Assembly: GCA_001790855.1 (NCBI GenBank)
Contig: MGDH01000018.1
Location: 14,207-78,206 of the forward strand
Source: Candidatus Schekmanbacteria bacterium RIFCSPLOWO2_02_FULL_38_14
GTDB taxonomy: Bacteria > Schekmanbacteria > GWA2-38-11
DNA: 64,000 bases
Direction of reading: 5' to 3'
The notes under the pieces were generated by a model. It ran no database searches and was not told the DNA's origin. It saw nothing but the letters and a program-made list of their open reading frames with translations. Positions 10,204 to 64,000 of this stretch are shown here, one piece after another; positions within the stretch are counted from its first letter, which is position 1; each line of letters opens with the position of its first letter. The position numbers were made by a program, and so were the translations under genes.

Positions 10204-10212
10204 TTTTAATCC

Positions 10213-11331: not shown

Positions 11332-11416
11332 AACTACACCTAACGACAGACATTACTCGCGAGTGTCCGAAGGGCGCAAGTTAGGTGCATGCCTTTATTA
11401 GATTTGCTTTTACATA

Positions 11417-12427
11417 CTAAATGATGTTGTCACTCTTTTTTCGATTACACTTCTCACACAGAAGTTCTATGTTTCTTGCAGTGTTACTTCCACCTTTTGA
11501 AACAGGTACCATATGGTCAAATTCTAACCTCTCTCGGCTTCCACATTTTACGCATGATCCATCATCACGTTTCCAGACGAATCTCTTTACTTCATCAGGA
11601 ATTCTTTGTCTATCAGGCTTTATACATTTCTCCTGAATAGGAATAGTATCATAGACCCTATCAATTAATTGTTCAGGTCTCCTCTTTATTAATTGTTCAA
11701 GTCTTCTCTTTCCATCTTTTTTTATAGAGAGTCCATGACTTGGCAGGATTGTATCAAAACTATAGTTCAACAACTTTGGTAGATTATCCCATGCCTTTTT
11801 GTAGGAAAAGCAAGACCATTCTGCTGAAAGGTTTAATTCCTCAGGTGCCATTTTAGGATTTAAAAGATTCTTCCCTAAAACTGTATCACCTGTAATAAGT
11901 ACCTTGTTTCGATAGAGCAAGCATATATTTCCTTTTGTATGCCCTTCAATGTGAATTATTCTTAAATCTTCATTAAAGAATTCATCATCTTTTAAACTGA
12001 TATCCACTTTACAGGGCGCAACATCAAAATGTTTTTGAAGCTCTTCAGGAACAAATTGAGGATTTGAAACCTTTTCTCTGCCTTCAATGAATGGTATGTC
12101 AGCGCTGTGTGCAGCAACAGGAACATTTAATTCTTCTTTAAGTTGGGCAAGGTTTCCTGTGTGGTCCCCATGGCAGTGAGTGCATATGATGACATCAACT
12201 TTGAACTTGTTTTTTTTCAAAAAGTTAAGGATTGTATGGTGAGAGCCCTTTTTAAAAAATTCAAATCCTCCTTCGCCAAAATTATATCCGTTTTTTGAAA
12301 GAAAATTCAAGACATCATTGTGCAATGGCTTTAGCCCGGTATCTACCAGTATCTTTTCAGACCCGTCTATATAAAATGCTTTTGTATTTGCCAGCTCAAT
12401 TTCATGGACACCATGAAAACTGTTCAT
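11417..12427 (-). CDS. fusion protein: N-terminal MBL-fold metallo-hydrolase plus C-terminal HNH endonuclease domain
   Basis: HCHGDHTGN (HxHxDH metal motif) near residue 85; C-terminal CVKCGSRERLEFDHMVPVSKGGSNTARNIELLCEKCN (HNH Cys4 and catalytic His). Confidence 0.7.
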   Translation of the reverse strand: MNSFHGVHEIELANTKAFYIDGSEKILVDTGLKPLHNDVLNFLSKNGYNFGEGGFEFFKKGSHHTILNFLKKNKFKVDVIICTHCHGDHTGNLAQLKEELNVPVAAHSADIPFIEGREKVSNPQFVPEELQKHFDVAPCKVDISLKDDEFFNEDLRIIHIEGHTKGNICLLYRNKVLITGDTVLGKNLLNPKMAPEELNLSAEWSCFSYKKAWDNLPKLLNYSFDTILPSHGLSIKKDGKRRLEQLIKRRPEQLIDRVYDTIPIQEKCIKPDRQRIPDEVKRFVWKRDDGSCVKCGSRERLEFDHMVPVSKGGSNTARNIELLCEKCNRKKSDNII

Positions 12428-41120: not shown

Positions 41121-42347
41121 ATGAAGAATCTAAAGAAAATTACCATCTATATGTTTTCAGTTTTTTTGATAGTAGGGTCATTATTAACCGTAGGAATAAA
41201 TGTTGTTTGCAGCACAGAAAAATACCTTTTGCCTGGAGATGCTAAAAAAGGGTGGCAGAGTTTTTTCACCAAAGGGTGCATCAAATGCCATTCTGTTTGG
41301 GGAGAGGGAGGTACAGCCGGTCCTAATCTTGGCATTACACCCTCTAAGCATTTGACTGAAGCAGAGCTTACAGCAGCCATGTGGAACCATGCTCCGGCAA
41401 TGTGGGAGAAAATGTTAGCAAAAGGGATAGATTTTAAAGCCATAAGCCAGGAAGAAATGGCTGATATATTCGCATTTCTCTACTTTATTAGATATATGGA
41501 TGAGCCAGGTAATAAGGAAAATGGAAAAGAGTTGCTGGCCACAAAAAAATGCACTAATTGCCATGCAATTCATGGAAAAGGAGGCAGAGTAGGGCCCGAG
41601 CTGACAAAATGGGGAACATATACTAATCCAATTCTGTGGGCGCAGATGATGTGGAATCATGCACCCCAGATGGAAGAGGAAATGAGGAACAGAGGAATAA
41701 CCTGGCCAATATTTGGTGAAAACGAGATGGTTGATATTATTGTTTATGTAAAGAGTGTCAGTAAATCGGGAGATAAAATTTTTATTTCACCAGGTGACTC
41801 AAAAGACGGTAAAATACTGTTTTCTAAAAAGGGTTGCAGCCATTGCCATTCTACCGAGACAGGTAGCAAAAAGGATGGACCAAATCTTGGAAGGGATTTA
41901 AGAAAAAAAGAATCTTTCCCAAGGACTATTACTCAGGTTGCAGGCCTTATGTGGAACCATTCTCCTGAAATGTGGAAAGAGATGAAAGAAAAGGGAATGA
42001 AGAGGCCAGAGCTCAATCCTCAAGAGATGGCAGATTTAATCGCATATCTTTTTTCTCTCCAATATTTTGATGAGCAAGGAAACAGAGAAAAAGGAGAAAA
42101 GGTATTTAAAGAAAAATATTGCATAAAGTGTCATACAGTGAATGGCAAAGGCGGTCTGAAAGGTCCTGACCTTAAGGAATGGCGCAGGCAGGTTTCGCCA
42201 ATTTCCATGGCGCAAGCTATGTGGAACCATGGTCCTTCAATGTTGGGAGAAATGAAAAAAATGGGCTTTAAATGGCCAAAGTTTGAAGGAAATGAGATAG
42301 TGGATTTGATGGAATATTTAAGAGAACTGGCTAATAAAACACTTTAA
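41121..42347 (+). CDS. tetra-domain c-type cytochrome, paralog of 39502-40731
   Basis: CIKCH, CTNCH, CSHCH, CIKCH with the same four-repeat layout and MWNH motifs; 408 vs 409 aa. Confidence 0.75.
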   Translation: MKNLKKITIYMFSVFLIVGSLLTVGINVVCSTEKYLLPGDAKKGWQSFFTKGCIKCHSVWGEGGTAGPNLGITPSKHLTEAELTAAMWNHAPAMWEKMLAKGIDFKAISQEEMADIFAFLYFIRYMDEPGNKENGKELLATKKCTNCHAIHGKGGRVGPELTKWGTYTNPILWAQMMWNHAPQMEEEMRNRGITWPIFGENEMVDIIVYVKSVSKSGDKIFISPGDSKDGKILFSKKGCSHCHSTETGSKKDGPNLGRDLRKKESFPRTITQVAGLMWNHSPEMWKEMKEKGMKRPELNPQEMADLIAYLFSLQYFDEQGNREKGEKVFKEKYCIKCHTVNGKGGLKGPDLKEWRRQVSPISMAQAMWNHGPSMLGEMKKMGFKWPKFEGNEIVDLMEYLRELANKTL

Positions 42348-42379
42348 GTTATATTATGTGAAAAAGGGAGGTTATTAAA

Positions 42380-43549
42380 ATGAAATATAAAAAACATTTT
42401 ATTTTCCTTATTTTTTTTCTCCTGCTTTATATTAATGTAATTTATGGATTTTCCAAGGATTGGCTGGAAAAGTTAAGTTCTGAATTTAAAGGACAAGAAT
42501 TTATCTCATCCAATATCTGTGGCAAATGTCATGTTGATATTTTCAAGTATTGGAAGAATTCTATGCATTCCCTCTCTTATCAAGACCCGATTTTTATGAA
42601 TGCGTATAAACAGGCTTTTTTCGATACTGACGGGAAGGCAAAAGAGTTTTGCCTTAGATGCCATGCCCCTATTGCTTACTATAGTAAAGACTTTGGATTC
42701 AAAAATGAAGTGAGCAAAGAGGGTATTACATGTGACTTCTGTCATTCTGTTTCTGGAATAGACCTGGATAATTTTAATCAACCTTATAAAGTTGAACCTA
42801 GTAAGACAAAATATGGTCCGCATAAGAATATGGAATCTCCGGTTCATATTACCAAGGCAACAAATTATTTTAGAAGATCTGAATTCTGTGCCGGCTGCCA
42901 TGAGCTTAAAGGAAAGAACGGAGTCAACATCATAAGTACTTACTCAGAGTGGAAAGAAGGGCCTTATTCCAAAAAAGGAATCCAATGTCAAAACTGCCAT
43001 ATGCCTTACGGTCCAGGCTCCATCGTTGACCAGAACCTAAAAAAGAGTGTGGTTAGAATGAATTTGCATGATGTCTCCGGAGGTCATTCAGTGGAACTTC
43101 TTGGTAAAGTAGCAAAGGTAGAAATTATAGAGCTTAAAAAGGGGGATGGAACTATTTCTGCCAAAGTTAAAGTAACAAATGTCAAATCCGGACACAAAAT
43201 ACCTACAGGCACCCCTACAAGAGAGTTGATTCTCAAAGTAACAGTAAAAAATTCCAAAGGGAATACACTGTGTCAAGACTCCAAAGTTATTAAAAAAACC
43301 TTGGCAGATGAGCAAAATAAAGAGCTCCTGACTGACAGCGATATTATTCTGAATGCAAATAGTATCTTGAGTGATAACCGGATTCCCCCAGGAGGCTCAA
43401 GAGAGTTTCTCTTTTCATTAGACTGCAATTTAAAAGGTGAATTTTTTGTTGAAGCATCGCTGATTTATATGTATAGACCTGAAATCACTACCTACGGGGA
43501 AATGTCAATTGATATGTCTAAGGATAGTAAAAAATTAGGTGTTAAATAG
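42380..43549 (+). CDS. pentaheme c-type cytochrome, periplasmic (389 aa)
   Basis: Signal peptide; CGKCH, CLRCH, CDFCH, CAGCH, CQNCH; C-terminal ~150 aa heme-free beta-rich region. Confidence 0.75.
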   Translation: MKYKKHFIFLIFFLLLYINVIYGFSKDWLEKLSSEFKGQEFISSNICGKCHVDIFKYWKNSMHSLSYQDPIFMNAYKQAFFDTDGKAKEFCLRCHAPIAYYSKDFGFKNEVSKEGITCDFCHSVSGIDLDNFNQPYKVEPSKTKYGPHKNMESPVHITKATNYFRRSEFCAGCHELKGKNGVNIISTYSEWKEGPYSKKGIQCQNCHMPYGPGSIVDQNLKKSVVRMNLHDVSGGHSVELLGKVAKVEIIELKKGDGTISAKVKVTNVKSGHKIPTGTPTRELILKVTVKNSKGNTLCQDSKVIKKTLADEQNKELLTDSDIILNANSILSDNRIPPGGSREFLFSLDCNLKGEFFVEASLIYMYRPEITTYGEMSIDMSKDSKKLGVK

Positions 43550-43672
43550 AAAAGATTTAATATTTTTTTAAAAATTTGATTTATAAAAGAAGTTTAATAA
43601 AGATAAAGACATCAGGCAATAATAGGAATAAAGTTCTTATTTTAACAATATAAAAAATAAAAGGAGGAGATT

Positions 43673-44245
43673 ATGAGAAAAAGAACAGCCTTGGTTTTTG
43701 TGTTTATATTTTTCTCTTTAATTTTAATTAGTAAAGTTCCAGGCGAAGAGACAAAATATAATTACATGGGTGTATTTAAATGCAAGACCTGCCATGCAAA
43801 TGTAAAGCTTGGTGGAACTGAGCATCAGGTATGGGAAAAAAGTGCCCATTCAAAGGCATACCAGACTTTGGCAAGTGAAAAAGCTAAAGCAAAGGCAAAG
43901 GAGCGGGGCATTGATGATCCTCAGAAGAGTGAGAAATGCTATAAGTGTCATGTGACAGGCTATGGGGTTGATAAAAGCAGATTTGATAAAAAGTTTAAAA
44001 TTGAAGATGGTATTCAGTGTGAAGAGTGCCATGGTCCTGGAGAGGGTTATTATCCCCGGTTTGTGATGCAGAAAAGAGATGAGTCAATAAAGAAGGGTTT
44101 GATAATTCCAGATGAAAAGGTATGTGTTAAGTGCCATAATGAAGAGAGCCCTTTTTATAAAAAATTTAATTTCAAAGAATTTTTTGCAAAGATGGATCAC
44201 AAGGGCCTTGGAACAAGTAAAGTAGGAGGAGGGAGTAAGAAGTAG
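43673..44245 (+). CDS. tetraheme c-type cytochrome (190 aa)
   Basis: Signal peptide; CKTCH, CYKCH, CEECH, CVKCH; own RBS aggagg upstream. Confidence 0.75.
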   Translation: MRKRTALVFVFIFFSLILISKVPGEETKYNYMGVFKCKTCHANVKLGGTEHQVWEKSAHSKAYQTLASEKAKAKAKERGIDDPQKSEKCYKCHVTGYGVDKSRFDKKFKIEDGIQCEECHGPGEGYYPRFVMQKRDESIKKGLIIPDEKVCVKCHNEESPFYKKFNFKEFFAKMDHKGLGTSKVGGGSKK

Positions 44246-44298
44246 GGTAGAGGCAGGTCTCCTGACCTGCCATTTTCAAAGCAAAAAAATTTAATTCT

Positions 44299-46203
44299 AT
44301 GAATGAAAAGAAATACAAAGTAGAGATTCCAGATTTAGAATATTACCAGCGTGTAATTAATTGCCAGTATGCCTGTCCAGTTAAAACTGCTGCTGGAAGC
44401 TATGTTACTGCAATTACAGATAGGGAATATGAAAAGGCTTATGATTTTGCAAGAATGCCAAATCCCTTTGTTTATGTCTGTGGAAGGATATGTGACCATC
44501 CATGTGAAACAGCCTGCAGGCGTGGTGCTATTGATGAGCCAATAGCAATATGCGCCCTTAAGAGAACAGCCACTGACCACCATAATTTGAGTTTAGGTCA
44601 TTGGCTAGGCTTGCCTCTTGAAAAGAAAAGAGAGGAAAAGGTAGCTGTTATTGGCGCAGGACCAGCAGGTTTATCAGCAGCCAATGATTTAGCAAGGCTC
44701 GGTTATCAGGTTACTGTTTTTGAAGCATCACCTGTCGCTAGTGGAATGTTATATCTTGGTCTGCCAGGTTATCGCCTGCCAAGAGATATAATCAAATTAG
44801 AGGTTGATTCCATATTAAACCTTGGGGTTGAGCTTAAGACAAATACTCCTTTGGGTGAAGGGTTGAATTTAGAGGATTTAAAGAGGCAAAAATATAAGGC
44901 AATTTTTATTGCTACAGGATGCACAAAAAGCAGGGATTTAAATATAGAAGGAGCTAATCTTGACGGGGTCTTAAAGGGTGTTGATTTTCTCTTAAACATT
45001 AACCTCGGTTATAGGGTTGAACTTGGGAAGAGGGTCATTGTAATTGGTGGTGGAAATGTGGCAATGGATGTGGCTCGTTCAGCTATCAGAAAAGGAACAG
45101 AGCTTGAATCTTTAAGCCCTGAGGAGATGAAAGATGCTTTGGAAAAGGCAAGAAAGGCATTACAGCAATTGGTTGAGAGTGAAGAGGAGAGAGAAAAGGA
45201 GATGCACATTGCAATGGATGTTGCAAGGTTAGCTCTGAGAAAAGGGGCAAAGGATGTGCATTTAGTCTGCCTTGAATCAAGAGAAGAGATGCCTGCCCAT
45301 GCTTGGGAGACAGAAGAAGCATTCGCAGAGGGGATTGTGTTTCATAATAGACTCGGGCCAAAAAGGATTTTAGGAAGAGATGGAAAGGTTACAGGCATTG
45401 AGACCATTAGATGCTCGTCGGTTTTTGATAGTGAGCATAGATTTAATCCAACCTTTATCAAAGGGACAGAAGAATTTATTGAGGCTGATTCAATTATTTT
45501 GGCTATTGGCCAGGCAGCAGATATCTCTTTTTTCAAGAAAGAGGATGGCATTTCAATAACTCGCCAGGGTTTGATAGAAGTTAATCCTGACACCCTCGCA
45601 ACAACAGCAGATGGAATTTATGCAGGTGGAGATATAGCTTTTGGGCCAAGAAATGTTATTGCAGCAATTGCAGATGGACAGAAGGCTGCAAGGTCAATTG
45701 ACTCTTATTTAAGAGGAGAGAGCAAGAAAAGGATTCGGGCAAGAATGGCAGTGATTAAGGATCATAAGATGCATGAAGGATATGAGAGAATCAAAAGGCA
45801 GAAAATGCCTACATTGCCACTTAATAGAAGGATTGGCATTGCTGAGGTAGAATTAGGTTTTTCTGATGAACAGGCAATAGAAGAAGGGAAGCGATGCCTC
45901 AGATGCAATATAAATACAGTCTTTAATGGTAATAAATGTATCCTGTGTGGTGGGTGTGTAGATATATGTCCTGAATATTGCTACAGAATGGCAAAAATTG
46001 AAGAGTTAGAAGAGAATGAGGTTCTTGAAAAGTTAGTTGAAGCAAGATATGGCATTTCTTTTGAAAAATTAAAAAGTGAAAGTGGTTTAAACAGGGCTAT
46101 GATAAAGGATGAAGAGAAATGCATTAGATGCGGCCTATGTGCTGAGCGCTGCCCTACTGGTGCTATTACTATGGAGCTTTTTGAATATAGTGAAAGGATT
46201 TAA
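44299..46203 (+). CDS. NfnB/GltD/SudA-like FAD- and NAD(P)-binding iron-sulfur oxidoreductase with C-terminal 2x[4Fe-4S] ferredoxin domain
   Basis: N-terminal Cys cluster (CQYACP...C), FAD motif VAVIGAGPAGLSAANDLARLGYQVTVFE, second Rossmann VIVIGGGNVAMDVA, C-terminal CILCGGCVDICP and CIRCGLCAERCP. Confidence 0.75.
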   Translation: MNEKKYKVEIPDLEYYQRVINCQYACPVKTAAGSYVTAITDREYEKAYDFARMPNPFVYVCGRICDHPCETACRRGAIDEPIAICALKRTATDHHNLSLGHWLGLPLEKKREEKVAVIGAGPAGLSAANDLARLGYQVTVFEASPVASGMLYLGLPGYRLPRDIIKLEVDSILNLGVELKTNTPLGEGLNLEDLKRQKYKAIFIATGCTKSRDLNIEGANLDGVLKGVDFLLNINLGYRVELGKRVIVIGGGNVAMDVARSAIRKGTELESLSPEEMKDALEKARKALQQLVESEEEREKEMHIAMDVARLALRKGAKDVHLVCLESREEMPAHAWETEEAFAEGIVFHNRLGPKRILGRDGKVTGIETIRCSSVFDSEHRFNPTFIKGTEEFIEADSIILAIGQAADISFFKKEDGISITRQGLIEVNPDTLATTADGIYAGGDIAFGPRNVIAAIADGQKAARSIDSYLRGESKKRIRARMAVIKDHKMHEGYERIKRQKMPTLPLNRRIGIAEVELGFSDEQAIEEGKRCLRCNINTVFNGNKCILCGGCVDICPEYCYRMAKIEELEENEVLEKLVEARYGISFEKLKSESGLNRAMIKDEEKCIRCGLCAERCPTGAITMELFEYSERI

Positions 46204-46210
46204 GCAGAAG

Positions 46211-46345
46211 GGTTCGAGGATTCGAGGGTTCAAATGAAAATCAAAGTTTAAAAATAAAAAATTAAAATTTTGGTATTTGAATTTTGATATTTGATTTTTA
46301 TTTCACTTGAACCCTTGACACCTAGACCCCTTGAACCCTTTTTTG
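46211..46345. repeat. palindromic element, family A variant with GC-rich arms (gggttcgagg...cttgaaccc)
   Basis: gggttcgaggattcgagggttcaaatg...ttcacttgaacccttgacacctagaccccttgaaccc; arms match those of 15531-15668. Confidence 0.55.
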
Positions 46346-46355
46346 AGGTTAACTA

Positions 46356-46829
46356 ATGTCTAAAGACGAAAAAATAGAGGAAATTTCACGTAGATATTTT
46401 TTAGCAGCAGGATGGTCATCTCTTGGCATTATTATGGCTGGCTCAGCCGGTGCAAGCATTCGCTTCTTGCTCCCCAATGTTCTTTTTGAGCCTCCAACTT
46501 CTTTTAGAATTGGAAAGCCTGAAGACTATGCTGATGGTTCAGTAAATTTTTTTCCTGAGAGAAAGATCTTTGTAATTAAAAAAGAGAATGGAATTTTTCA
46601 AACTATCTCTGCAGTATGCACTCATCTACGTTGTATTGTGAAATGGTCAGAGACAAACAAGAATTTTGAGTGCCCCTGCCATGGAAGTATATTTGATGGG
46701 AAAGGCAGAATTATTGGTGGACCTGCTCCAACACCACTTGACTGGTATGAGATAACACTTGGAGAGGATGGTAAATTGTTCATAGATACTATGAAAGTTG
46801 TGGATAGCGGATATTATTTAAAGGTATAA
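46356..46829 (+). CDS. Rieske [2Fe-2S] iron-sulfur subunit of a cytochrome bc-type complex
   Basis: TAT-like RRYFLAAG; CTHLRC...CPCHGS Rieske boxes. Confidence 0.85.
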   Translation: MSKDEKIEEISRRYFLAAGWSSLGIIMAGSAGASIRFLLPNVLFEPPTSFRIGKPEDYADGSVNFFPERKIFVIKKENGIFQTISAVCTHLRCIVKWSETNKNFECPCHGSIFDGKGRIIGGPAPTPLDWYEITLGEDGKLFIDTMKVVDSGYYLKV

Positions 46830-46987
46830 AACATTTCTCCTCATCCTTTATCCTTCTCCCCATAGGGGAGAAGGCAGGTTGAGGGGGAGAAGAAAAACAT
46901 TCAACCCCAGAAGGGGTTTCCCACAGGAAATTGTGGGAGAGAATAAGAGGGACGACAGAGACGTCGTTCCCTACATGATAGGATAAT

Positions 46988-48472
46988 ATGGGGAATATAT
47001 TAAGCAAGTGGACTGAAAGAATTACACAAAACAGAATCTGGAAATCAATTTTCAGACATGGCTATCCTGATACAGAGCTTAATCAATCCCTTGTCATGTA
47101 TACCAATCTTTTTCTTCATATTCAACCTGTAAAGGTTCATAAAAATGTTTTAAGACCATCATATACCTTAAGCCTTGGTTTGATCTCTTTTATACTATTT
47201 CTTGTCCTTGTAATAACAGGGATATATTTAATGTTCTATTATGTCCCTTCAGTTGACAGGGCTTACAATGATATGAAGGAGCTTCAATTTGTTGTCTCCT
47301 TTGGCATATTTTTGAGAAACCTGCACCGATGGTCAGCTCATGGAATGGTGGCTGCAGTATTTTTACATATGTGCAGGGTTTTCTATACGGCTTCTTATAA
47401 ACCTCCAAGAGAATTTAACTGGGTCTTAGGAGTTATACTTTTAATAGTGACATTTGGTTTAAGTTTTACAGGCTATCTTCTTCCCTGGGACCAGCTTGCT
47501 TTCTGGGCAATTACAGTGGGTACAAGCATTGCCAGCTATGCACCAATTATTGGGCAGAAACTACGCTATTTTCTGTTAGGTGGGAATATTGTTGGGCAGA
47601 ATGCTCTTTTGCGGTTTTACGTTCTCCACTGCGTTGTTCTGCCATCAGTTGCTGCTGTCTTAATAGGAATACATTTCTGGCGGATAAGAAAGGATGGAGG
47701 GTTATCAAAGCCTGCAGAAAAATTAAAACAAGAAGAAAAGTTTGAAGAGCTGCAGGAAGAAGGGCTTTCCCCAAAAGGAACAAGTAAGACTTATGGTTTA
47801 ATGGAACTTGTAAAAGGTGCTACTATTCCTGTAGAACAGGAGCCCGAGAATGAGATAATGTCATGGCCACATTTGATCTTTAGAGAGTTCCTTGTCGCCA
47901 TAGTTGTTTTAGTAGTGCTTATTGCTATTTCCTTATTTTTTAATGCACCTCTTGAGGAGCTTGCAAATCCTTCAGAGCCTCCGAATCCAGCAAAGGCTCC
48001 ATGGTATTTCTTAGGACTTCAGGAGCTTGTATCTTATTCAGCCTTTATAGGAGGTGTAATTACACCTTTTCTTGTTGTTTTTGCGCTCCTGATGGCAATA
48101 CCTTATATAGATTACAGAGCAGAAGATGTGGGGATATGGTTTTCCTCTAAGAAGGGTCGTTTAATAGCATTAATTACAGCAACCCTGACATTAATAAGTA
48201 TTCCTGTCTTGATTTTTCTTAATATGAAATACGGGATTAGAGTTTTCTACCCTGATGCTCCTTCAATTCTTGTGGATTTGATAAATCCTGGAACAATTCT
48301 GATTGGAGTTACAGCAGTTATCTCAATTATTATAGGGGTCCGCACTAAGTCATGGAGGTTAGCTGCCATGATGATATTTACCTCCTTTGTAACTGGTTTT
48401 ATTGTGTTGACTGTTATTGGAACATTATTCAGGGGTCCTAACTGGGAGTTTGTTTTCCCATGGAAAGGATAA
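46988..48472 (+). CDS. cytochrome b (fused b6 + subunit-IV-like, 494 aa) of bc-type complex
   Basis: Conserved cytochrome b N-terminus ([12 protein letters not shown] ... [10 protein letters not shown]) and C-terminal PEWY-region equivalent ([10 protein letters not shown]); additional C-terminal TM helices. Confidence 0.85.
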
Positions 48473-48508
48473 AAAAATATATAGGAGTCTGTCAGAGAAC
48501 CCTTTTTT

Positions 48509-48659
48509 GTCATTGCGAGCGACTCCCTCGATATTGCTCGGGACAGGCTCCGGGAGCGTGGCAATCTCAAATCCCCCTATATCCCCCTTTTCCCTGCCTG
48601 CCGGTAGGCAAGTAAAGGGGGAGAAAAGAGGGATTGCTTTGGATTCGCCTCGCAATGAC
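48509..48659. repeat. nested palindromic element ~150 nt: family D termini, then GCAATCTC/GAGGGATTGC, then family B C-runs, then family C core
   Basis: gtcattgcgagcgactccc...gtggcaatctcaaatccccctatatcccccttttccctgcctgccggtaggcaagtaaagggggagaaaagagggattgctttggattcgcctcgcaatgac. Confidence 0.6.
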
Positions 48660-48713
48660 AAGAAAACTCATATTATTTAGAATTTCGAATTTAGGATTTT
48701 AGATTTTAAATAC

Positions 48714-49808
48714 ATGGTTAAATATTTTACATTTTTTAGTATTATTCTCCTGGTCTTTTTTTCTCTTGCCATCTTTAAGGATTATGATAGAGAGTGGAAG
48801 GATTTCCAGAAGAGGTTCTACGAGATTGAATCAGAGAGAGGAAAAAACGCTGAAGAGAAAAAAGTGATAAGAAATACTCCTTTGAGAATAAAACAGATAG
48901 TGTTAGAGGATTTGAATAGAGTTGATAGGTGCACAACCTGCCATCTCGGAATGGAATATGAGAAAAAGTCTTACAAAAAGAATCCATATAAGTCTCATCC
49001 CGACCCAACAATGCATCCCTTTGATCAATTTCCCTTTGATAGATTTGGATGCACCATCTGCCATGAAGGGCAGGGAAGAGCTACTACAAAGGATGATGCC
49101 CATGGTGATGTGGATTTCTGGGATAAGACCATGCTAAGGGGTATTTATCTGCAAGCCTCATGTCTAAAATGTCATGATGACCCTGACCTTAAGGGTGCTG
49201 AGATTGCAATGAAAGGGAAAAAACTTTTTGAGGAAAATGACTGCTATGAGTGTCATAAAGTAGGAGATAAAGGAGAAAGTGTAGGACCTGAGCTTACAAA
49301 GGAAGGATTAAAGACAAAACACCATTTTGATTTTACCCGTGTAAAGGGCAAGCACACTATTGCTAACTGGCAATTCGAGCATCTAAAAAATCCGGAAGCA
49401 GTTGTTCCTGATTCAGTGATGCCAAATTTGGAACTCAGTGATGAAGATGCAAGAGCCTTGACTATATATCTCTTAAGCCTTACTGATGAAAAGGTGCCAG
49501 AAGAATACATAGCGTCTCTAAAAAGAGGTCCTATCCTTGCATTAAGTAGAAAAGTTACAAAGCCTGAGATGAGTCCAGGTGAAAAGCTTTATATAGAGAT
49601 GAACTGCTATTACTGCCATAAGATAAAAGGGGAAGGAGGTGATGGAGCACCTGATTTAACTGGAGTTGGCGCAAGGCATGATGAAGATTGGCTTATAAAA
49701 CATTTTGACACTCCGCGGTCAATAAGTCCTCATTCTTTTATGCCTGACTATAAACTTACACCCGAGGAGATAAAGGCTCTGACAGATTTTATGTTGACTT
49801 TGAAATAG
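48714..49808 (+). CDS. pentaheme c-type cytochrome associated with the Rieske/cyt b genes (C-terminal class-I monoheme domain)
   Basis: N-terminal TM anchor; CTTCH, CTICH, CLKCH, CYECH, CYYCH; C-terminal CYYCHKIKGEGGDGAPDL...FMPDY typical class-I cytochrome c. Confidence 0.75.
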   Translation: MVKYFTFFSIILLVFFSLAIFKDYDREWKDFQKRFYEIESERGKNAEEKKVIRNTPLRIKQIVLEDLNRVDRCTTCHLGMEYEKKSYKKNPYKSHPDPTMHPFDQFPFDRFGCTICHEGQGRATTKDDAHGDVDFWDKTMLRGIYLQASCLKCHDDPDLKGAEIAMKGKKLFEENDCYECHKVGDKGESVGPELTKEGLKTKHHFDFTRVKGKHTIANWQFEHLKNPEAVVPDSVMPNLELSDEDARALTIYLLSLTDEKVPEEYIASLKRGPILALSRKVTKPEMSPGEKLYIEMNCYYCHKIKGEGGDGAPDLTGVGARHDEDWLIKHFDTPRSISPHSFMPDYKLTPEEIKALTDFMLTLK

Positions 49809-49840
49809 CTATGAGACAAAGGTTTTCATAAAACAATCAA

Positions 49841-50000
49841 GCCCAGAAGGGCTTTTCCACAGTTTTATGTGGGAGAGCCTTTTTAGGCTCGATAGCGAAG
49901 AAAAAAATAAGGAGGTGATGAGACAAGCTACATAGTAAGGGAAAGAGTTTAGATTTAAATTCTGTTAGCTACCGGATATATTTAAGAAAAAGGAGGAACT
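49841..50000 (+). promoter_or_regulatory. conserved leader/promoter module (copy 1): GCCC-AGAA-GGGC hairpin, CCACAG-TTTTAT-GTGGGAG hairpin, GAGCC-TTTTT-AGGCTC hairpin, A-rich tract, TTTAGATTTAAATTCTGTTAGCTACCGGATATATTTAAG, AGGAGG RBS
   Basis: Near-identical ~140-nt block recurs at 53010-53149 upstream of the next gene; hairpins and a TTGAAT/TTTAAA-17nt-ATATAT promoter-like spacing seen in sequence. Confidence 0.45.
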
Positions 50001-52790
50001 ATGATTGAAGAAGTATTTTTGATACTGAAAAGAAAATGGTTTATATGTGCATTGGCTTTTCTTTTTGCCATTTCAGCATCCTATGTTTTTGAGAAAGAAG
50101 CCAGTGCAGCAAAAACTTATAACATAGTGGTTAAGATAAAGTCAAATAAAGCCACTAACAGAACAGGCGTAGCGGTAGAGGTCACAGGAGGAGATTTAAC
50201 AACACCCAAGACTGCTACAACGAAAAAAACAGGTATTGTAAAGTTTACAAAACTTGCTAAAGGAACTTACACTGTTACTCCTGCAAAGGAAGGCTATACC
50301 TTTGACCCTGAATCAAAGCCTGTTACATTTGCAACAAGGAGAACAGTAAATGTTGTTTTTAAGTCAACAGAGGTTGTAATTCCTGTTACTGAAGAGGCTA
50401 TAACTCTGTCAACATCTGCAAACGGGACTCACTTTGCTGCGGGTGAGAAACCAATAATCACCATTTCTCTGCCCGACCTGTCCAGCCGCAGTGACTATTC
50501 GCAGCTACGCCTGGTGGTTTATGGTCCACAGGAAACGACCAAGACTAAAACAGCGGTGAATCTGCTCAATGCGTCCACTGACCGTTCCTTAGCTAACACG
50601 GGCCCGCATCACTACATTGACCTCGTTACAGACACCAATGTTCAGCTCAATGATAATATTCTGACCTATACGCTCCAGCCAATCACAGATGAAGAAGCAG
50701 GGACATACACAGCAAGTTTGTGGGCTGTTTTGAAAGATGACCCTTCTGTGCAGTCGTTCCCGCTTGCTGATTTCCAGATTGGAACAGCTACTGCTGAGAC
50801 GCAAATAGTAGAGAGGGAAAATTGTTCTGTCTGCCATAAGGGTGCTGATAGCGGGAAATATTACTTCCATCACATAGATCCTCGTACCGCCGGTTCATCT
50901 GGATACCCATCAATTGACTCGTGGGCAGTGAGAACGTGCAAGAGCTGCCATAACACAGATGGCTATGCAGCATACACTGATCCCGCTAATCCCTCTGCCA
51001 CTGATGGCTCTAATAAAATTCCGGATCCGATTGTAAAGCGTGTACATGGTGTTCATATGGGAGAGGAGTTAAAGAACGCGCTCAACACTGACGCGACGAC
51101 AGGTATTTTCAAAAACTACACAAGTGTGGTATTTCCTGCAAATGTCAAGAACTGCACTATGTGTCACGTGGATGATAAATGGAAGACCACACCTTCACGT
51201 CTTGCTTGTGGCGCCTGCCATGATAATATCTGGTTTGGTGATCCGGCAGCCCTTCCTTCAGGACAAGAGGCACATCCTGGTTTACAACAGGATAGCGATA
51301 CCGGATGCTCTACCTGCCACCCTGCAGATGGTTCATGGACCAAGGGTTCGGCACCTGCACCCATTTCAACGGTTCACAAGGTTGATTCGCCAGCTTACAA
51401 GTATACTGTAGAGATTAGCCTAAGCGCACCGGCAAATGAGACTCACTATGTTGCGGGCGAGGCGCCTCAGGTAACAATAACAATCAAAGATGCTACCACT
51501 GGTGCCACAATTGACCCGAACACGCTAACAGAGACCGCCTTCAGCCGTGCCTCTCTCTACGTCTCCGGCCCGCGTGAAAATACAAAACCTGTGCTTACCA
51601 CCTCGGCCAAGGGCCTTGGAGCCGTCCGTGCTTTGGCGACGAACAGCAAGGATGGACCCTGGGATCTGTCAGGCGACCCTACCTTTATCATTGGCATTGA
51701 CGGTACCTCCCGCACGGTAACGGCTGCGGCAAGTAATTTCGCAAATCCGGCAGCTGCGACCCAGGCAGAGGTCATTACATGGCTGAAAAAGGCGCTTCCT
51801 GATGGCATTGGCGATGTGGCGACAGTCTCTGCGTCTGGCACAACAAAAGTCACGATTAAAAGCAATACCAGAGGCTCGACATCCAAGGTCGAGATCTTTG
51901 CAAGTTCAGTTGCAACGGCTATGGGGTGGACCGTTGGTGCGAAAACCCCTACACCTCGTTCCTATGCCAGCAATGACTTCCGCGTCCGCAAAGATTCTTT
52001 TGATGAGGATCCGAAGGTGAGTCGTTCCACCACTGCAGTTACGTACCAGTTAGACGATGTTGCCGGTCTGACCTCAGGCACCTATACTGCTTTTGCCCAG
52101 ATGAGTCCGACATCTGGTTTTGGCGGCTCGGCGGTGGTCAATTTCCAAGTGGGTGGGGCTACAGAAGAAAAGAAGGTTGCTACAAACTGTACCAATTGCC
52201 ATGGTGATACAACAATGCACAGCACCTCCTTATCAGTGCCATTCAATCCAGACATCTGCAAGAACTGCCACGATTACAATCGTGAGGGGACTGGATATGG
52301 TTGGGCCGGCGCTCCCCCGACCGGAACGAACGGGACCTCAACGAGCGGCTGGAGCGGTTTTGGTGCCAAGCCCTTATCAAGCAGAATCCACGGTGTTCAC
52401 CGCGGTCGTTATCTGGAGCATCCTGAGGATGTAAAACCACTGTATAGGCTCGTAAGCGGGGTTGCCACGTATTGGCCTGAATACGATTTCTCTGAAGTGA
52501 TTTTCCCTCAGGATATAAGAAACTGCACCAAGTGTCACAGCGCCGATACGACCGGGACTTGGAAGACAGAACCATCTCGGTTAGCCTGTCTTGCCTGCCA
52601 CGACAACGATGAGGCAACTACCCACGGTAATCTGATGACGTATGATACGACACCTACAGATCCATGGAGCGGTGATGAGATAGAGACATGTGTTGTGTGT
52701 CATGGTTCTGGTAGGGACTTTTCTCCTGACAAGGTGCACAATATCTCGAGTCCCTATAAGCCACCGTATCTACGAGAGCCTGCAGAGTAA
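50001..52790 (+). CDS. large secreted decaheme c-type cytochrome (929 aa), mosaic composition
   Basis: Signal/anchor N-terminus, beta-sandwich N-domain. Ten CxxCH sites: CSVCH, CKSCH, CTMCH, CGACH, CSTCH, CTNCH, CKNCH, CTKCH, CLACH, CVVCH. Internal duplicated module (CxxCH...WKT.PSRLAC.ACHDN occurs twice). Bases ~50420-52790 are ~55% GC vs ~33% elsewhere. Confidence 0.8.
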   Translation: MIEEVFLILKRKWFICALAFLFAISASYVFEKEASAAKTYNIVVKIKSNKATNRTGVAVEVTGGDLTTPKTATTKKTGIVKFTKLAKGTYTVTPAKEGYTFDPESKPVTFATRRTVNVVFKSTEVVIPVTEEAITLSTSANGTHFAAGEKPIITISLPDLSSRSDYSQLRLVVYGPQETTKTKTAVNLLNASTDRSLANTGPHHYIDLVTDTNVQLNDNILTYTLQPITDEEAGTYTASLWAVLKDDPSVQSFPLADFQIGTATAETQIVERENCSVCHKGADSGKYYFHHIDPRTAGSSGYPSIDSWAVRTCKSCHNTDGYAAYTDPANPSATDGSNKIPDPIVKRVHGVHMGEELKNALNTDATTGIFKNYTSVVFPANVKNCTMCHVDDKWKTTPSRLACGACHDNIWFGDPAALPSGQEAHPGLQQDSDTGCSTCHPADGSWTKGSAPAPISTVHKVDSPAYKYTVEISLSAPANETHYVAGEAPQVTITIKDATTGATIDPNTLTETAFSRASLYVSGPRENTKPVLTTSAKGLGAVRALATNSKDGPWDLSGDPTFIIGIDGTSRTVTAAASNFANPAAATQAEVITWLKKALPDGIGDVATVSASGTTKVTIKSNTRGSTSKVEIFASSVATAMGWTVGAKTPTPRSYASNDFRVRKDSFDEDPKVSRSTTAVTYQLDDVAGLTSGTYTAFAQMSPTSGFGGSAVVNFQVGGATEEKKVATNCTNCHGDTTMHSTSLSVPFNPDICKNCHDYNREGTGYGWAGAPPTGTNGTSTSGWSGFGAKPLSSRIHGVHRGRYLEHPEDVKPLYRLVSGVATYWPEYDFSEVIFPQDIRNCTKCHSADTTGTWKTEPSRLACLACHDNDEATTHGNLMTYDTTPTDPWSGDEIETCVVCHGSGRDFSPDKVHNISSPYKPPYLREPAE

Positions 52791-52811
52791 ATAAAGCAAG
52801 GTGGATTCGTT

Positions 52812-52856
52812 AACAAGCCTATTCCCGATGGGGGGGGGTAGGCTTGTTATTTTATC
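52812..52856 (+). terminator. rho-independent terminator after the decaheme gene (aacaagcct...aggcttgtt + T-run)
   Basis: 9-bp stem, G-run loop, followed by attttat. Confidence 0.5.
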
Positions 52857-53009
52857 AAATATTTCTAATTAGCCATATGAGATATTATAGGAGGAAGAGA
52901 TAAAGGTTCTGATTAAATAGAGGTTGACTTTGAAATAGGTATAGGCTAAAAGTTTTTGCAAAATAATCGGCCCCACAGAAGGGGCCTCCCCTGCCTGCGG
53001 TAGGCAGGC

Positions 53010-53149
53010 ACAGTTTTATGTGGGAGCGCCTTTCAAGGCTCGATATAGAAAAGAAAAAAATGGAAAGGGGTGATGCAATAGAATAGATAAAAACTGGAGA
53101 AGGTTAGATTTGAATTCTGTTAGCTACCGAATATATTTAAGGAGGATAT
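53010..53149 (+). promoter_or_regulatory. conserved leader/promoter module (copy 2), paralogous to 49841-50000
   Basis: cacagttttatgtgggagcgcctttcaaggctcgata...ttagatttgaattctgttagctaccgaatatatttaaggagg atg; a family-C palindrome is inserted just upstream (52988-53011). Confidence 0.45.
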
Positions 53150-54679
53150 ATGAAGAGAAATTTATTTTTGACGACAATTTTCGTAGGAGTGTTTATCTCC
53201 TCGATTCTTTCCTTTTCCTATGCCACTGCTAAGGGGAAACCAGGAAAGAAGCCAACGGTTATAAGCATAACCCCGAAAACAGGAGCACAAGGGGAACCCC
53301 TTGATGTAACTATAAAAGGAAAGAATTTTGTTGACACACCTACTGTTAGTTTAGGCGCAGGGATAACTGTGAATGGAGTTGAGTTTGTCTCAGCGACAAA
53401 GTTAACTGCAAACATCACTATTGCCTCAGATGCTAAGATAGGACCAAAACCTGTAACTGTTACTAATCCTGATGGGAAAAAAAGCCAGGCAAAGAAAATT
53501 TTCAAGGTTAAGAAAAGCACATTACCTCAGGCTGATATAATTGCTAAAAAGGTAACAGATGAACCAGGTGAGGCTGATTGGGCAAAAATATCTGGTTCAT
53601 TAATCCAGACAACAGGCAACCCAGCAACTGGAGGACATGGTGCTCTCGGTGAAGAGAATCTCGTTGCAGTAAAGCTTCAGGCATCTCATGACAGCACAAA
53701 TATCTTCATGAGATTTGAATGGGATGACTCAACCCAGAATAACACCCATGAGGTCTGGACATATAGTGCAAGCAGTAGCACATGGTCTAAAGCTGGCAAT
53801 GAGGACAGAATTCTTATTGCATGGCCAATTACAGACGTTGCTGGCAGAGAGGGAAAAACTTTTCAGGAGATTGGATGTGCAATGCTCTGCCACCTGAAGG
53901 ATGCAAATGACCCAACTAAAACTAAGATTGTGCCTAACACCACTGACGCAGTCAATGATTGTTCAGTTTGCCATCCAAATTCTTCAGGTAAAGATACAAC
54001 CTTTGTCCATGTATTACCTACATCAGCTCAAACTTGTATTAGCTGCCATGCTGATAGGGAGATTGAAGAGATTGCTGATATGGGTTCACCTTCTGGTGGT
54101 GCCTTTGACATCTGGCACTGGAAAGCTGGAAGAAGCGATGGTATAGGACTTGCTGAGGACCAGGAAGCATCTGACGGCAAACTTCGAACAAATGATGGTG
54201 CAGGGCTTACAAGCAATAACGATGGTCCTGCTGGATTCACGGACAGGCCAAAATATATCTGGACTGCTGCTTCAGGTAAAGGAGCTTCTCCTGTAACAGA
54301 GATAATAAAGAATAGCGAGATCGCATCCCTTAAGGCTTCAAATTACCTTGCTGAGATAAATGCTACTGATGGGAAATATTATCTTAGCAATGGAACAACT
54401 GAAGAAGTTCTAGGGGATGGTGCGCAAGTGAGGAGAAGAATCCTTAAGGATGGAACCAATATTACAGAGCCTGGCAATGGAGATATCAAGGCATCAAGCG
54501 GCTATTTAGACGGAAAATGGACAGTAGTACTTAAGAGAAAACTCAATACTACTGACACTAAAGACTATGTGTTCAAAACAGGTGAAACTGATATAAACTA
54601 CTTTGGATTTGCTGTCACTGACAACAGCGGGAACAGCCATAAAGCAAAGGCTTTGCTGAAATTGAGGTTTGGGCAGTAA
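53150..54679 (+). CDS. secreted IPT/TIG-domain protein with c-type heme motifs (one CX3CH plus two CxxCH)
   Basis: Signal peptide. N-terminal IPT/TIG-like Ig domain (VISITPKTGAQGEPLDVTIKGKNF). Heme motifs GCAMLCH (verified on DNA: tgt gca atg ctc tgc cac), CSVCH, CISCH. Confidence 0.65.
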   Translation: MKRNLFLTTIFVGVFISSILSFSYATAKGKPGKKPTVISITPKTGAQGEPLDVTIKGKNFVDTPTVSLGAGITVNGVEFVSATKLTANITIASDAKIGPKPVTVTNPDGKKSQAKKIFKVKKSTLPQADIIAKKVTDEPGEADWAKISGSLIQTTGNPATGGHGALGEENLVAVKLQASHDSTNIFMRFEWDDSTQNNTHEVWTYSASSSTWSKAGNEDRILIAWPITDVAGREGKTFQEIGCAMLCHLKDANDPTKTKIVPNTTDAVNDCSVCHPNSSGKDTTFVHVLPTSAQTCISCHADREIEEIADMGSPSGGAFDIWHWKAGRSDGIGLAEDQEASDGKLRTNDGAGLTSNNDGPAGFTDRPKYIWTAASGKGASPVTEIIKNSEIASLKASNYLAEINATDGKYYLSNGTTEEVLGDGAQVRRRILKDGTNITEPGNGDIKASSGYLDGKWTVVLKRKLNTTDTKDYVFKTGETDINYFGFAVTDNSGNSHKAKALLKLRFGQ

Positions 54680-59654: not shown

Positions 59655-61046
59655 TCAATCAACAAACAGATAATCCCATCCTCTTTTCAAGATAGATTTA
59701 AAATGCTTGGGAGTTTTTATCTCAGAAAGCATTTTTAAAAGTATTTTAGGCCTTAGATGAAATGATAAAAAAGCCTTTCTCTGAAATTTTTTAATCTCCT
59801 TTTTTGATATTCCTTTTGGAGAATATGGAACCTTAGAATAAAATAAAGATTCCCATTGGATGTTACCTATTTCTTTGCTTTGCTGCAACTCTTCAGTAGC
59901 TTCAGTTCCCGGAAGAGGCAGAAAATTGGCAAAGTGGGCTCTTTTAAGCTTTAATTTTTTTGCAAATTTAATTGTTGCTTCTATATCCTCTTTTGTTTCT
60001 GCAGGATAGCCTATGATAAAAAAACCGCTCGGCTCAAGCCCCACTTCATTTATCAAATTGACCTTTTCCTCGATTAATTTCAGGCTCAGTTCCTTTTTCA
60101 TGTGGTCAAGGACTCTCTGCGAGCCTGATTCAATCCCGACAGTAAAAGCATATGCTCCTGTTTCTTTCATAAGCATAAGCATTTCACGGTCAAGGGTATT
60201 GAGCCTCAAGCCATTCGGGAAGGTGTAGCTTATATTCATTTTTCTTTCTTTTACTCCGTCACAGAACTCTTTGACTCTGTTTTTGTAGAGATTGAACATA
60301 TCGTCAATTATGTGGAATTCTCTGATTCCATAGTCATTATACAAAAGTTCCATCTCGTCCAGCACATTTTTAATATTCCTCAACCTTAATTTCCTTCCCA
60401 TATTGGTATATGAGGCACAGAAGGTGCAGTGGTACGGGCAACCCCTTGATGTGCTGATAGGTGCTATTGGAAAATTTTTATAAAAAGCCCCCTGAGGGTT
60501 GTCAGGATAGGTGTCTGGCTTCAGTAAATCCCATGCAGGGAACTCAAGGGAGTCCAAATCCTCTATGAATTTTCTTTCATTAACCTGTATTTTATTCCCG
60601 TCTTTCCAGATTAAACCCGGAATGTCTTTGAATGCAATATCTTCACTATTTAAAGTTTTTTTCAGCAAGAGCGGAAGATTTTCTTCTCCCTCTCCCCAAA
60701 CTCCGTAATCTGCCTTATCAAGCTCTTTCAGAACTTTTTCTCTTGTTGTTGAGACATGAGCGCCCCCAATGATTATAATAGTGTCAGGATTTGATTTCCT
60801 GACAATTTCTATTGATTGCTTAACTCTGCCAAAATCAAAGGAGAAGACCTGAAACCCTACGATTTTTGGTTTTTCTTTTCTTATAAAATTTTCAAAATCT
60901 TTAAAACTGAATTTTTCCTTTATGCAATCAAGGATTGAAATATCAGAGAAACCATTTTTTCTGAGAGCACTGGCTAAATATCCCAGCCCGATTGGCGGGA
61001 CAACATAATGAGTGTTGCTTATAGGGGTTACAAGCAGAATCTGCAT
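59655..61046 (-). CDS. B12-binding-domain radical SAM protein
   Basis: N-terminal cobalamin-binding Rossmann-like region; CPYHCTFCA (CxxxCxxC) radical SAM cluster motif. Confidence 0.8.
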   Translation of the reverse strand: MQILLVTPISNTHYVVPPIGLGYLASALRKNGFSDISILDCIKEKFSFKDFENFIRKEKPKIVGFQVFSFDFGRVKQSIEIVRKSNPDTIIIIGGAHVSTTREKVLKELDKADYGVWGEGEENLPLLLKKTLNSEDIAFKDIPGLIWKDGNKIQVNERKFIEDLDSLEFPAWDLLKPDTYPDNPQGAFYKNFPIAPISTSRGCPYHCTFCASYTNMGRKLRLRNIKNVLDEMELLYNDYGIREFHIIDDMFNLYKNRVKEFCDGVKERKMNISYTFPNGLRLNTLDREMLMLMKETGAYAFTVGIESGSQRVLDHMKKELSLKLIEEKVNLINEVGLEPSGFFIIGYPAETKEDIEATIKFAKKLKLKRAHFANFLPLPGTEATEELQQSKEIGNIQWESLFYSKVPYSPKGISKKEIKKFQRKAFLSFHLRPKILLKMLSEIKTPKHFKSILKRGWDYLFVD

Positions 61047-63579: not shown

Positions 63580-64000
63580 TCATTTCACTTTCTTGAACAG
63601 ACAGTAAACAAATTCCTGTATCGTATTAAATGGTGTTGTGTGATGTTCAACCTGACTTGACATGAGACTAAAGGCGTCTCCAAGAGTCCGTTGAAGGGAA
63701 GTCGGATCGTAGCGTACAATCTCAAGACCGCTGCACTTAAGCGGGCCATTAGGGCCAAAGGTCGCGATGATGACAAAACCACCCCGGCGAACGCTGGTCT
63801 CCATTGACTTGCAGTATCCTTTGCGCTCATTTTCCCGTACCAGAAAGTGAAATACTGCTCGGTCATGCCAAACATCAAAACTGGATTCCGATAGATCAAC
63901 CGCAGTAATATCGCCAAGAACCCATTTGACGGAATCGGCTCGGGAAGCGAGTCGGTTTTTAGAGTACTCTAATGCTTGCGCTGAAATGTCCAAAACAGTG
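63580..64000 (-). CDS. class I SAM-dependent methyltransferase, partial (C-terminal part; gene start beyond right edge)
   Basis: Protein fragment has post-motif-I features (VLGDITAVDL, DVWHDRAVFHFL, FVIIATFG); region is ~50% GC, unlike most of the window. Confidence 0.5.
   Translation of the reverse strand, partial: TVLDISAQALEYSKNRLASRADSVKWVLGDITAVDLSESSFDVWHDRAVFHFLVRENERKGYCKSMETSVRRGGFVIIATFGPNGPLKCSGLEIVRYDPTSLQRTLGDAFSLMSSQVEHHTTPFNTIQEFVYCLFKKVK

Follow-up and report, generated by a model that had tools for sequence, protein, structure and literature searches.

MtrC-type decaheme cytochromes are usually discussed within the proteobacterial MtrCAB conduit, and the Shewanella proteins MtrC, MtrF and OmcA (plus the undecaheme UndA) share ten CxxCH heme-binding motifs in two groups of five, a plan of barrel, pentaheme, barrel and pentaheme domains with an internal two-fold duplication, and a CX8C disulfide in domain III that serves as a flavin-binding switch. 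Mosaic genes are also described: penA and pbp2x of Neisseria and Streptococcus arise by interspecies recombination, a homologous replacement between orthologs that leaves blocks of differing ancestry and composition in one frame and tract-wise similarity to different donors. Here I describe a decaheme cytochrome gene at 50001..52790 (+) of a 64-kb stretch of DNA (64,000 nt, hereafter the window) from a Candidatus Schekmanbacteria metagenome-assembled genome (MAG) of the Rifle aquifer, which is very probably a two-part chimera of a native leader and a GC-richer MtrC/OmcA-family body, made by one old in-frame join and followed by later recombination within the body. Unlike the penA and pbp2x mosaics, its main junction joins non-homologous modules at a domain boundary, and homologous exchange is seen only inside the body.

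The MtrC/MtrF/OmcA family is already known, as is the horizontal spread of mtrCAB among Bacteria, likewise with movement between lineages, recombination footprints and presence or absence between close relatives (Baker et al., 2022, mBio, PMC8805035). That work concerns whole mtrCAB clusters, whereas the window holds a stand-alone mtrC-like body spliced in frame onto a host leader, and domains have been exchanged inside the gene. What is new is this in-frame splice of a stand-alone family member, with a junction narrowed to 54 nt and supported by a syntenic relative carrying an alternative body and by an empty site, together with the evidence for cross-phylum domain exchange given below. A term search of the PMC8805035 text gave no mention of Chloroflexi, Planctomycetes or Verrucomicrobia (Schekmanbacteria was not checked there), and literature searches on Schekmanbacteria cytochromes, or on MtrC in Chloroflexota, Planctomycetota or Verrucomicrobiota, turned up generic metagenome surveys and nothing on this gene. 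Stand-alone MtrC-type decahemes occur in these three phyla, in Myxococcota and in Schekmanbacteria.

A composition break inside a decaheme gene

From its ATG start the gene forms a single open reading frame (ORF) of 929 aa with exactly ten CxxCH motifs, five of them within aa 275-440 (at 275, 313, 385, 403 and 436) and five within aa 730-901 (at 730, 753, 842, 863 and 897); its sole non-heme cysteine, C16, lies in the signal peptide, and twelve more conserved histidines are candidates for distal ligands. A first-pass annotation of this DNA had reported the ORF, its ten motifs and the terminator behind it, all of which are present, and a rise from ~33% to ~55% GC, of which the direction is right and the figures are slightly overstated: codons 1-133 have 36.6% GC, with GC at third codon positions (GC3) of 0.25, and codons 141-929 have 51.2% and 0.49, in a window of 38.1% GC. 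Local peaks reach 57-61% near 51.5-51.8 kb and 52.25-52.45 kb, and the spurious alternate-frame ORFs that had been noted are real, those of at least 60 aa being confined to the GC-rich part.

The scan of GC, GC3 and codon usage that had been suggested across the gene bears out the break. The maximum-likelihood GC3 change-point falls after codon 140 (nt 50421), from 0.24 to 0.49, with a log-likelihood ratio of 15.2, where 500 shufflings of the codons reached no more than 8.7, and the cumulative codon-usage score is highest at codon 146. Subtracting GC3 of the first 140 codons from that of the rest gives +0.245 here and +0.012 +/- 0.055 in 31 host genes (z = 4.2), and the 45 other window ORFs have a GC3 of 0.334 +/- 0.041. 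On a synonymous codon score that sets a host table (36 host genes) against a table from Planctomycetota homologs, the leader is host-like at +0.33 per codon and each body domain scores -0.02 to -0.22, the 36 host genes averaging +0.195 with a lowest value of +0.137. GC at first and second positions rises too, from 0.42/0.43 to 0.52/0.52, in keeping with the abundance of Gly, Ala, Pro, Cys and His in the body. Past the terminator the composition is again that of the host, and the neighbouring multiheme genes have a normal GC3 of 0.31-0.35. Two other causes were considered and rejected, namely a codon-bias effect of 5' ends, as host genes have no such gradient, and high-expression codon bias, from which the first 140 codons would not be exempt. 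The case reminds users of gene finders and binning tools that a sharp composition break within one ORF can be real.

The same annotation had held that the protein resembles OmcA and MtrC in layout and not in sequence, and this was wrong. Pfam PF22113 (MtrC/MtrF domains II/IV) matches in two stretches with 92.8 bits (cut-off 30); the NCBIfam model TIGR03507 (decahem_SO1788, OmcA/MtrC) scores 183.6 bits with an expect value (E) of 5.9e-54, under its curated cut-off of 209.3, a score by which the protein is a clear homolog yet outside the curated subfamily; and a profile built from 122 homologs matches MtrF (3pmq) with E 4.9e-13. An AlphaFold model built on the family alignment (confidence scores pLDDT 85.4 and pTM 0.78) has the four-domain fold of the solved structures, barrel I, pentaheme II, barrel III and pentaheme IV, and the top fold matches of the body are MtrF, MtrC and OmcA, at 15-21% identity in structural alignment to structures of this type. 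The internal module duplication that had been described is there as a repeated motif, NCT.CH..D..WKT.PSRLAC.ACHDN, at aa 384-409 and 841-869, though it is no local event: the two halves of the body match each other with 32% identity over 220 aa (E 5e-23), so that the motif is part of a half-gene duplication which is the old two-fold architecture of the family.

The window protein also departs from its Shewanella counterparts: it has a further beta-sandwich at the N-terminus and, in domain III, an alpha/beta insert of ~115 aa, and it lacks both a lipoprotein signal and the CX8C disulfide. No lipobox L-x-[GAS]-C is found at the N-terminus, where C16 sits in the WFIC of the hydrophobic core (a lipobox-like motif occurs in 23 of 121 family members), and domain III has no CX8C disulfide, the mature protein being without cysteine outside the ten heme motifs. 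Nor is the setting that of Shewanella, with no mtrA or mtrB near and the gene standing behind a Rieske/cytochrome b/cytochrome c operon.

The leader and the junction

Evidence that the two parts of the gene have separate histories comes from a related contig, L089 (GC 0.397), which is syntenic with window positions 41133-50363 at 79-86% nt identity and shares the genes for a cytochrome c, a c554-like cytochrome, a GltD-like oxidoreductase, a Rieske protein, cytochrome b and a further cytochrome c, then the promoter region and the leader. Homology ends at nt 50363. The uncharacterised L089 protein P0185 has the same operon, position and promoter region and a leader with 71% protein and 81% DNA identity, and differs from the window protein after codon 121, where it continues into a second beta-sandwich and then an unrelated body with eight CxxCH motifs. 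P0185 has near-host composition throughout (GC3 0.23-0.50 in 40-codon windows; gene GC 0.429 against 0.392 outside), and no counterpart of its eight-heme body was found in the window. When window and L089 are compared, the synonymous divergence (dS) of the leader, 0.61, is close to the 0.61, 0.67 and 0.73 of cytochrome b, cytochrome c and the Rieske gene, from which it follows that the leader descended with the operon.

Approached from the other side, DNA alignments to four Planctomycetota genes (L024, L028, L030 and L038) and to a further contig, L003, all start at window nt 50418-50421. The stop of L089 homology at 50363 and the start of GC-rich homology at 50418 place the junction within 50364-50417, in agreement with the GC3 change-point and with the modelled boundary of domain I, and its linker, VV(I/N)P(V/P)VTEE, is common to the window and to two other contigs, L002 and L008. 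The proposal of the first-pass annotation that a horizontally acquired multiheme body had been joined in frame to a native export leader is thereby upheld in both halves, the leader co-diverging with the L089 operon and the body belonging to a GC-rich family. This gives a clean case, resolved at the level of bases, from a respiratory protein, a foreign multiheme wire spliced onto a host export leader, in which a pre-fusion-like state (L089), an empty site (L087, described below) and several descendants can be compared.

The leader itself comprises a predicted Sec signal peptide, whose motif is kept in P0002, P0016, P0121 and P0185 and whose cleavage would fall at E-A-S-A|A, and a prealbumin/CnaB-like beta-sandwich. 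Pfam SpaA matches this sandwich with 25.6 bits (cut-off 23.1) and its fold resembles pilin CnaB, SpaA and the transthyretin-like domains of carboxypeptidase D, so that Pfam and fold both place aa 37-125 in the prealbumin/CnaB-like group (SpaA, CarboxypepD_reg). Its family supplies tandem-repeat domains of giant surface proteins, with 3115 library matches and up to 29 copies per protein. A paralogous leader was sought elsewhere in the window and none was found. In an exhaustive HMMER search P0185 was the one representative with the whole leader (71% identity over aa 1-126, signal peptide MIEEVFLILKKKWFI); a word-indexed search with the leader alone returned two short proteins only and missed known full-length carriers. 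The leader also has a third passenger, since in contig L007 (GC 0.396) it is joined to a protein with a subtilase prodomain of the fervidolysin type (Pfam PF22148). L007 is a long-read contig in which frameshifts split this leader-subtilase-like gene (9949-12000) into at least three frames and likewise split the adjacent MurJ gene, making its gene calls unreliable.

Origin of the body, age of the fusion and rival explanations

Homologs of the body align from query residue ~112-134 onward, without the leader, and come from Chloroflexota, Planctomycetota, Verrucomicrobiota, Myxococcota, Gemmatimonadota, Gallionellales and others. Across 40 other loci, host GC runs from 0.485 to 0.731 (median 0.614). 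The GC of the gene follows that of its host there, with a difference from the flanks of -0.005 +/- 0.027 and at most +0.055; the excess over the flanks is +0.136 for the window body and +0.095 for L008. The body, codons ~131-929, was probably acquired from a GC-richer lineage, with the closest relatives in Planctomycetota and further ones in Chloroflexota and Verrucomicrobiota.

Within the body, too, the sequence is a patchwork, in which domain III has been swapped and domain IV groups with a Pirellulales allele. The window and L002 differ in domain III by a dS of 1.41, where the other parts give ~0.5. The insert, which has no Pfam match and forms a small alpha/beta fold in the model, is found in roughly one half of the family; the closest ortholog, P0002 (L002), does not have it, and that of the window is most like the GC-rich P0003, P0004, P0029 and P0030 (~50-60%). 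In domain IV the window and L002 group with the Pirellulales protein P0005, and L008 and L003 with each other and with different homologs. Where residues are conserved, the fraction with the same codon is 0.71 within aa 745-825 and 0.51 in the rest of the gene (Fisher p = 0.0016); the tract stands out in this way, and nt identity to the Pirellulales gene falls to ~68% outside it. These observations are evidence for domain exchange across phyla, and family members appear to swap domains among those lineages; after the fusion the body would have kept recombining with family members, domain III being replaced with or without its insert.

As for the age of the join, the exact protein is NCBI A3C43_03765, from a Candidatus Schekmanbacteria bacterium whose name begins RIFCSPHIGHO2_02, its protein cluster is recorded on five contigs (the exact protein was read on four), and the architecture of leader plus body recurs in three further contigs. 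L002, from another Rifle sample, has 70-74% protein identity, a flank GC of 0.40 and a GC3 step from 0.27 to 0.47 after codon 131; L008, from Candidatus Schekmanbacteria GWA2_38_11, has 51% identity, a flank GC of 0.37 and a gene GC of 0.47 with a more gradual rise; and L003, from an unrelated run, has 50% identity, a flank GC of 0.51 and an AT-rich leader as the outlier. The GC3 step is significant in L002 only, with the best change-point of L008 at codon 622 and no significant step in L003. The leader and linker (VVIPVTEE and variants) are common to P0001, P0002, L008p and P0016, and the four leader-bearing proteins are reciprocal best matches in domains I-II, two points that favour a single fusion. 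The dS values of the window-L002 pair do not change at the junction (0.52 for cytochrome c, 0.48 for the leader, 0.55 for domains I-II and 0.53 for domain IV), which means that the fusion predates the split of the two. The recent or private mosaicism first suggested is not borne out, given the same junction in L002, L008 and L003 and this uniform dS; and the uniform composition that close relatives might have had is not what they have, the contrast being significant in L002 and weaker in L008 and L003.

One non-homologous in-frame join at the domain boundary would then have occurred in an ancestor of several Schekmanbacteria-like lineages, and the body would be only partly ameliorated toward its host. 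A rough calculation, taking 0.25-0.4 synonymous substitutions per lineage toward an equilibrium GC3 of 0.33, suggests that amelioration would remove ~40-60% of the original GC3 excess, so that the present 0.49 projects back to roughly 0.6-0.7; such a value would be normal for GC-rich carriers, and the lasting contrast would need no special explanation.

Several observations weigh against a native leader with a foreign body. In L003, whose host has 51% GC, it is the leader that is odd and the body that is host-like: over L003 9500-13000, in a contig of 51-55% GC, the contrast is reversed, with the leader at 0.33-0.42 GC and the body near host level. This implies that the chimera moved as a unit at least once, and that 'native' is to be read as native to the lineage; it seems that another host, richer in GC, received the chimera ready-made. 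The leader dS values are noisy, coming from ~120 codons. No single donor was identified, the best GC-rich relatives having 60-62% protein and ~70% DNA identity, and the direction of transfer accordingly rests on composition and taxonomic distribution. Part of the similarity between the two repeats that flank the gene (U1 and U2, below) comes from a small intergenic hairpin element, which related contigs carry at other places too. Finally, the host is diderm, as its FadL, TolC-like and AcrB genes tell, yet the window has neither a porin nor an MtrA to partner the protein: no Pfam match above cut-off to an MtrB/PioB-type porin or an MtrA/DmsE-type protein was obtained among 45 ORFs of the window, which include almost all those of 150 aa or more, and precomputed Pfam annotation of the L003 and L004 neighbours has no mtrA or mtrB.

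The rival that fares best, and a quite possible one that falls somewhat short of an even chance, differs from fusion in place solely in where the join was made. The chimera would have been built at another place in the lineage and brought afterwards, by recombination, to its site behind the cytochrome c gene. The shared leader and promoter would have been the left homology arm, and the incoming gene would have replaced a leader-octaheme gene of the L089 type or filled an empty site of the L087 type. The chimera does relocate, standing after polA in L008 and beside NrfD/Fe-S genes in L003, and its terminator travels with it; the U1/U2 repeats, together with the displaced remnant of the cytochrome c 3' end, resemble a scar left by recombination; and the window is nearer to L089 than to L002 in mid-leader (71-82% against 51-64% nt identity) and nearer to L007 than to L002 over the mature leader (69% against 59%). 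Yet leader dS equals that of flanking genes for both window-L002 and window-L089, as descent in place predicts, and no crossover point can be resolved inside the leader.

It is very unlikely that the whole gene is native and that its break stems from protein composition or codon selection. GC at first and second positions is raised as well, and short GC3 excursions to 0.44-0.52 do occur in a few host genes, but the strongest signal is synonymous, held over 790 codons, the conditional codon usage of the body lies outside that of all 36 host genes used, and neither the neighbouring multihemes nor the eight-heme body of L089 departs from the host. A transfer in the reverse direction, with the family arising in an AT-rich lineage and spreading to GC-rich phyla, is harder still to credit: the leader-bearing forms are indeed reciprocal nearest neighbours in domains I-II, but GTDB species-representative genomes have at least 558 candidate stretches that encode a relative, Schekmanbacteria account for one of the 79 loci listed, gene GC equals host GC in those genomes and not in the window, and a GC-rich source is required to explain the excess in an AT-rich host. 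Last, an assembly chimera, which a short-read MAG with a composition break, the classic sign of a chimeric contig, might call to mind, is excluded by the continuous frame and the return of host composition after the terminator, by an independent 132-kb MEGAHIT contig (ENA) identical to the window over 8790 nt, by the same junction in L002, L008 and L003 from other samples and studies, and by dS that is uniform across it.

The locus, its repeats and a possible function

The features of the locus are collected in Table 1. The gene lies between direct repeats of ~240 nt with 73-84% identity, U1 and U2, and both long repeat motifs tested occur within the window at these two sites only. Their promoter-like elements are TTTAAA-17-TATATT (49954-49982) in U1 and TTGAAT-16-TATATT (53110-53137) in U2, and the cytochrome c remnant of U2 (52894-52938) has in-frame stops. 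In L087 the cytochrome c gene is followed directly by the ortholog of the downstream gene for a protein with an ethylbenzene-dehydrogenase-like domain (EB_dh), and the intergenic region between them matches U2, which identifies L087 as an empty site. L002 has the same cytochrome c remnant just past the terminator, so that the scar predates the window-L002 split, and the terminator hairpin is conserved behind the gene in L002 and, at the unrelated locus after polA, in L008. Three states are thus found at one operon position: leader-octaheme (L089); leader-decaheme with U2 and EB_dh (window and L002); and EB_dh alone (L087).

Table 1. Coordinates of features in the window, with the corresponding residues of the protein and of its AlphaFold model.
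Feature	Position (nt)	Strand	Residues (aa)	Residues in model (aa)	Remarks
Five-CxxCH cytochrome c gene	48714..49808	+			Upstream; Pfam; syntenic in L002, L087 and L089
Direct repeat U1	49764..50002	+			Last 45 nt of cytochrome c gene, intergenic hairpin repeat, promoter-like element, ribosome-binding site (RBS) AAGGAGG, ATG
Signal peptide (predicted)	50001..50108	+	1-36	2-34 (N-terminal helix)	KRK, 18-residue hydrophobic core, conserved cleavage motif, no lipobox
Prealbumin/CnaB-like beta-sandwich	50109..50363	+	37-121	40-124	AT-rich, GC3 ~0.25
Fusion junction and linker	50364..50417	+	122-139		STEVVIPVTEEAITLSTS; between end of leader homology and start of body DNA homology
GC-rich MtrC/OmcA-family body	50418..52787	+			
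Domain I, beta-barrel	50400-50795	+		134-260	
Domain II, pentaheme	50796-51386	+		270-460	Five hemes
Domain III, beta-barrel	51387-52175	+		468-717	Alpha/beta insert at ~535-650 in model
Alpha/beta insertion in domain III	51588..51935	+	530-645		Highest GC in gene, 55.5%
Domain IV, pentaheme	52176-52787	+		728-929	Five hemes; disordered Gly/Thr/Ser loop 760-789
Domain IV tract	52233..52475	+	745-825		85-91% nt identity to Pirellulales gene (L004/L038, 55% GC host)
Intrinsic terminator	52811..52849	+			16-bp stem, then TTTTAT
Direct repeat U2	52894..53152	+			Decayed cytochrome c 3' remnant, hairpins, promoter-like element, RBS, ATG of next gene
TIG/EB_dh gene	53150..54679	+			Signal peptide, TIG/'choice-of-anchor Z' type Ig domain, ethylbenzene-dehydrogenase-like heme-b domain with CxxCH

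The upstream cytochrome c, which has an apparent N-terminal hydrophobic segment as read from its sequence, is encoded by the last subunit gene of the Rieske (46356-46829)/cytochrome b (46988-48472) complex and is the likely electron partner of the decaheme. A scan of JGI metagenome contigs with this protein found no relative, and synteny was obtained from the contigs of exact-protein look-ups. If the best-supported chimera is followed through to a function, the protein would be exported by Sec, would carry ten attached c-type hemes and would take electrons from the membrane-anchored cytochrome c of this complex. Its MtrC-type chain of hemes would conduct them to an acceptor outside the cytoplasm, or the flow would run the opposite way, and the beta-sandwich would be a spacer or attachment module. 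The words 'anchor', 'extracellular' and outer-surface in the first-pass annotation should be kept as conjecture, given a protein that has no lipobox and a window that has no mtrA or mtrB. The place of the gene behind the operon is variable in its contents, with the ~240-nt repeats carrying promoter and RBS, and with somewhat less than an even chance this position may be a plug-in site at which promoter, RBS and portable leader may dock exchangeable terminal redox modules. Such a site, if real, would accept an eight-heme cytochrome, an MtrC-type decaheme from a cross-phylum gene pool or an ethylbenzene-dehydrogenase-like heme protein, and would let the end of the respiratory chain be re-tooled with the core complex untouched. 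For groundwater biogeochemistry, the locus suggests that reach to extracytoplasmic electron acceptors or donors is an accessory trait, gained and lost in uncultured bacteria.

Seen more widely, the decaheme gene is the eleventh of a 20-kb same-strand respiratory cluster (34446-54679). The cluster encodes a c7-like cytochrome, a molybdopterin-type subunit, an Fe-S subunit and NrfD (alternative-complex-III-like or Psr-like); a pair of cytochromes c, a pair of c554-like multihemes and a GltD-like FAD/Fe-S oxidoreductase; and the Rieske protein, cytochrome b, the five-heme cytochrome c, the decaheme and the EB_dh-like protein, which has few close homologs and also varies in its placement. The window's only other notable GC3 excursions are a local 140-codon stretch with GC3 0.52 in a B12-binding radical SAM gene (59655-61046, minus strand) and a partial ORF at the window end (63580-63993, minus strand; GC 0.47, GC3 0.45).

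The small intergenic element consists of TGTGGGA, a hairpin GAGCCT-loop-AGGCTC and then GATA, often paired with AGCCC....GGGCTTTCCACAG, and is found at window 49858-49900 and 53009-53050, at L087 1000-1060 and at L089 7755-7790 and 11854-11878, with several tandem copies at L088 1875-2275. In a variant, AAGCCC/GGGCTT, the stem is preserved by changes on both sides. It may be a lineage repeat of the repetitive extragenic palindromic (REP) type and a substrate for locus rearrangements. An Rfam scan of 49600-53300 returned sub-threshold chance matches only, the repeated 5' region belonging to no described RNA family. Both repeats also have, at 49908-49935 and 53062-53085, a strong Shine-Dalgarno-like AAGGAGGTGATG with a stop almost directly after, giving a mini-ORF that reads M-R-Q-A-T* in U1, M-Q* in U2 and M* in L002 and has no Rfam match; lying upstream of the promoter-like element, it could be a 'start-stop' or leader mini-ORF.

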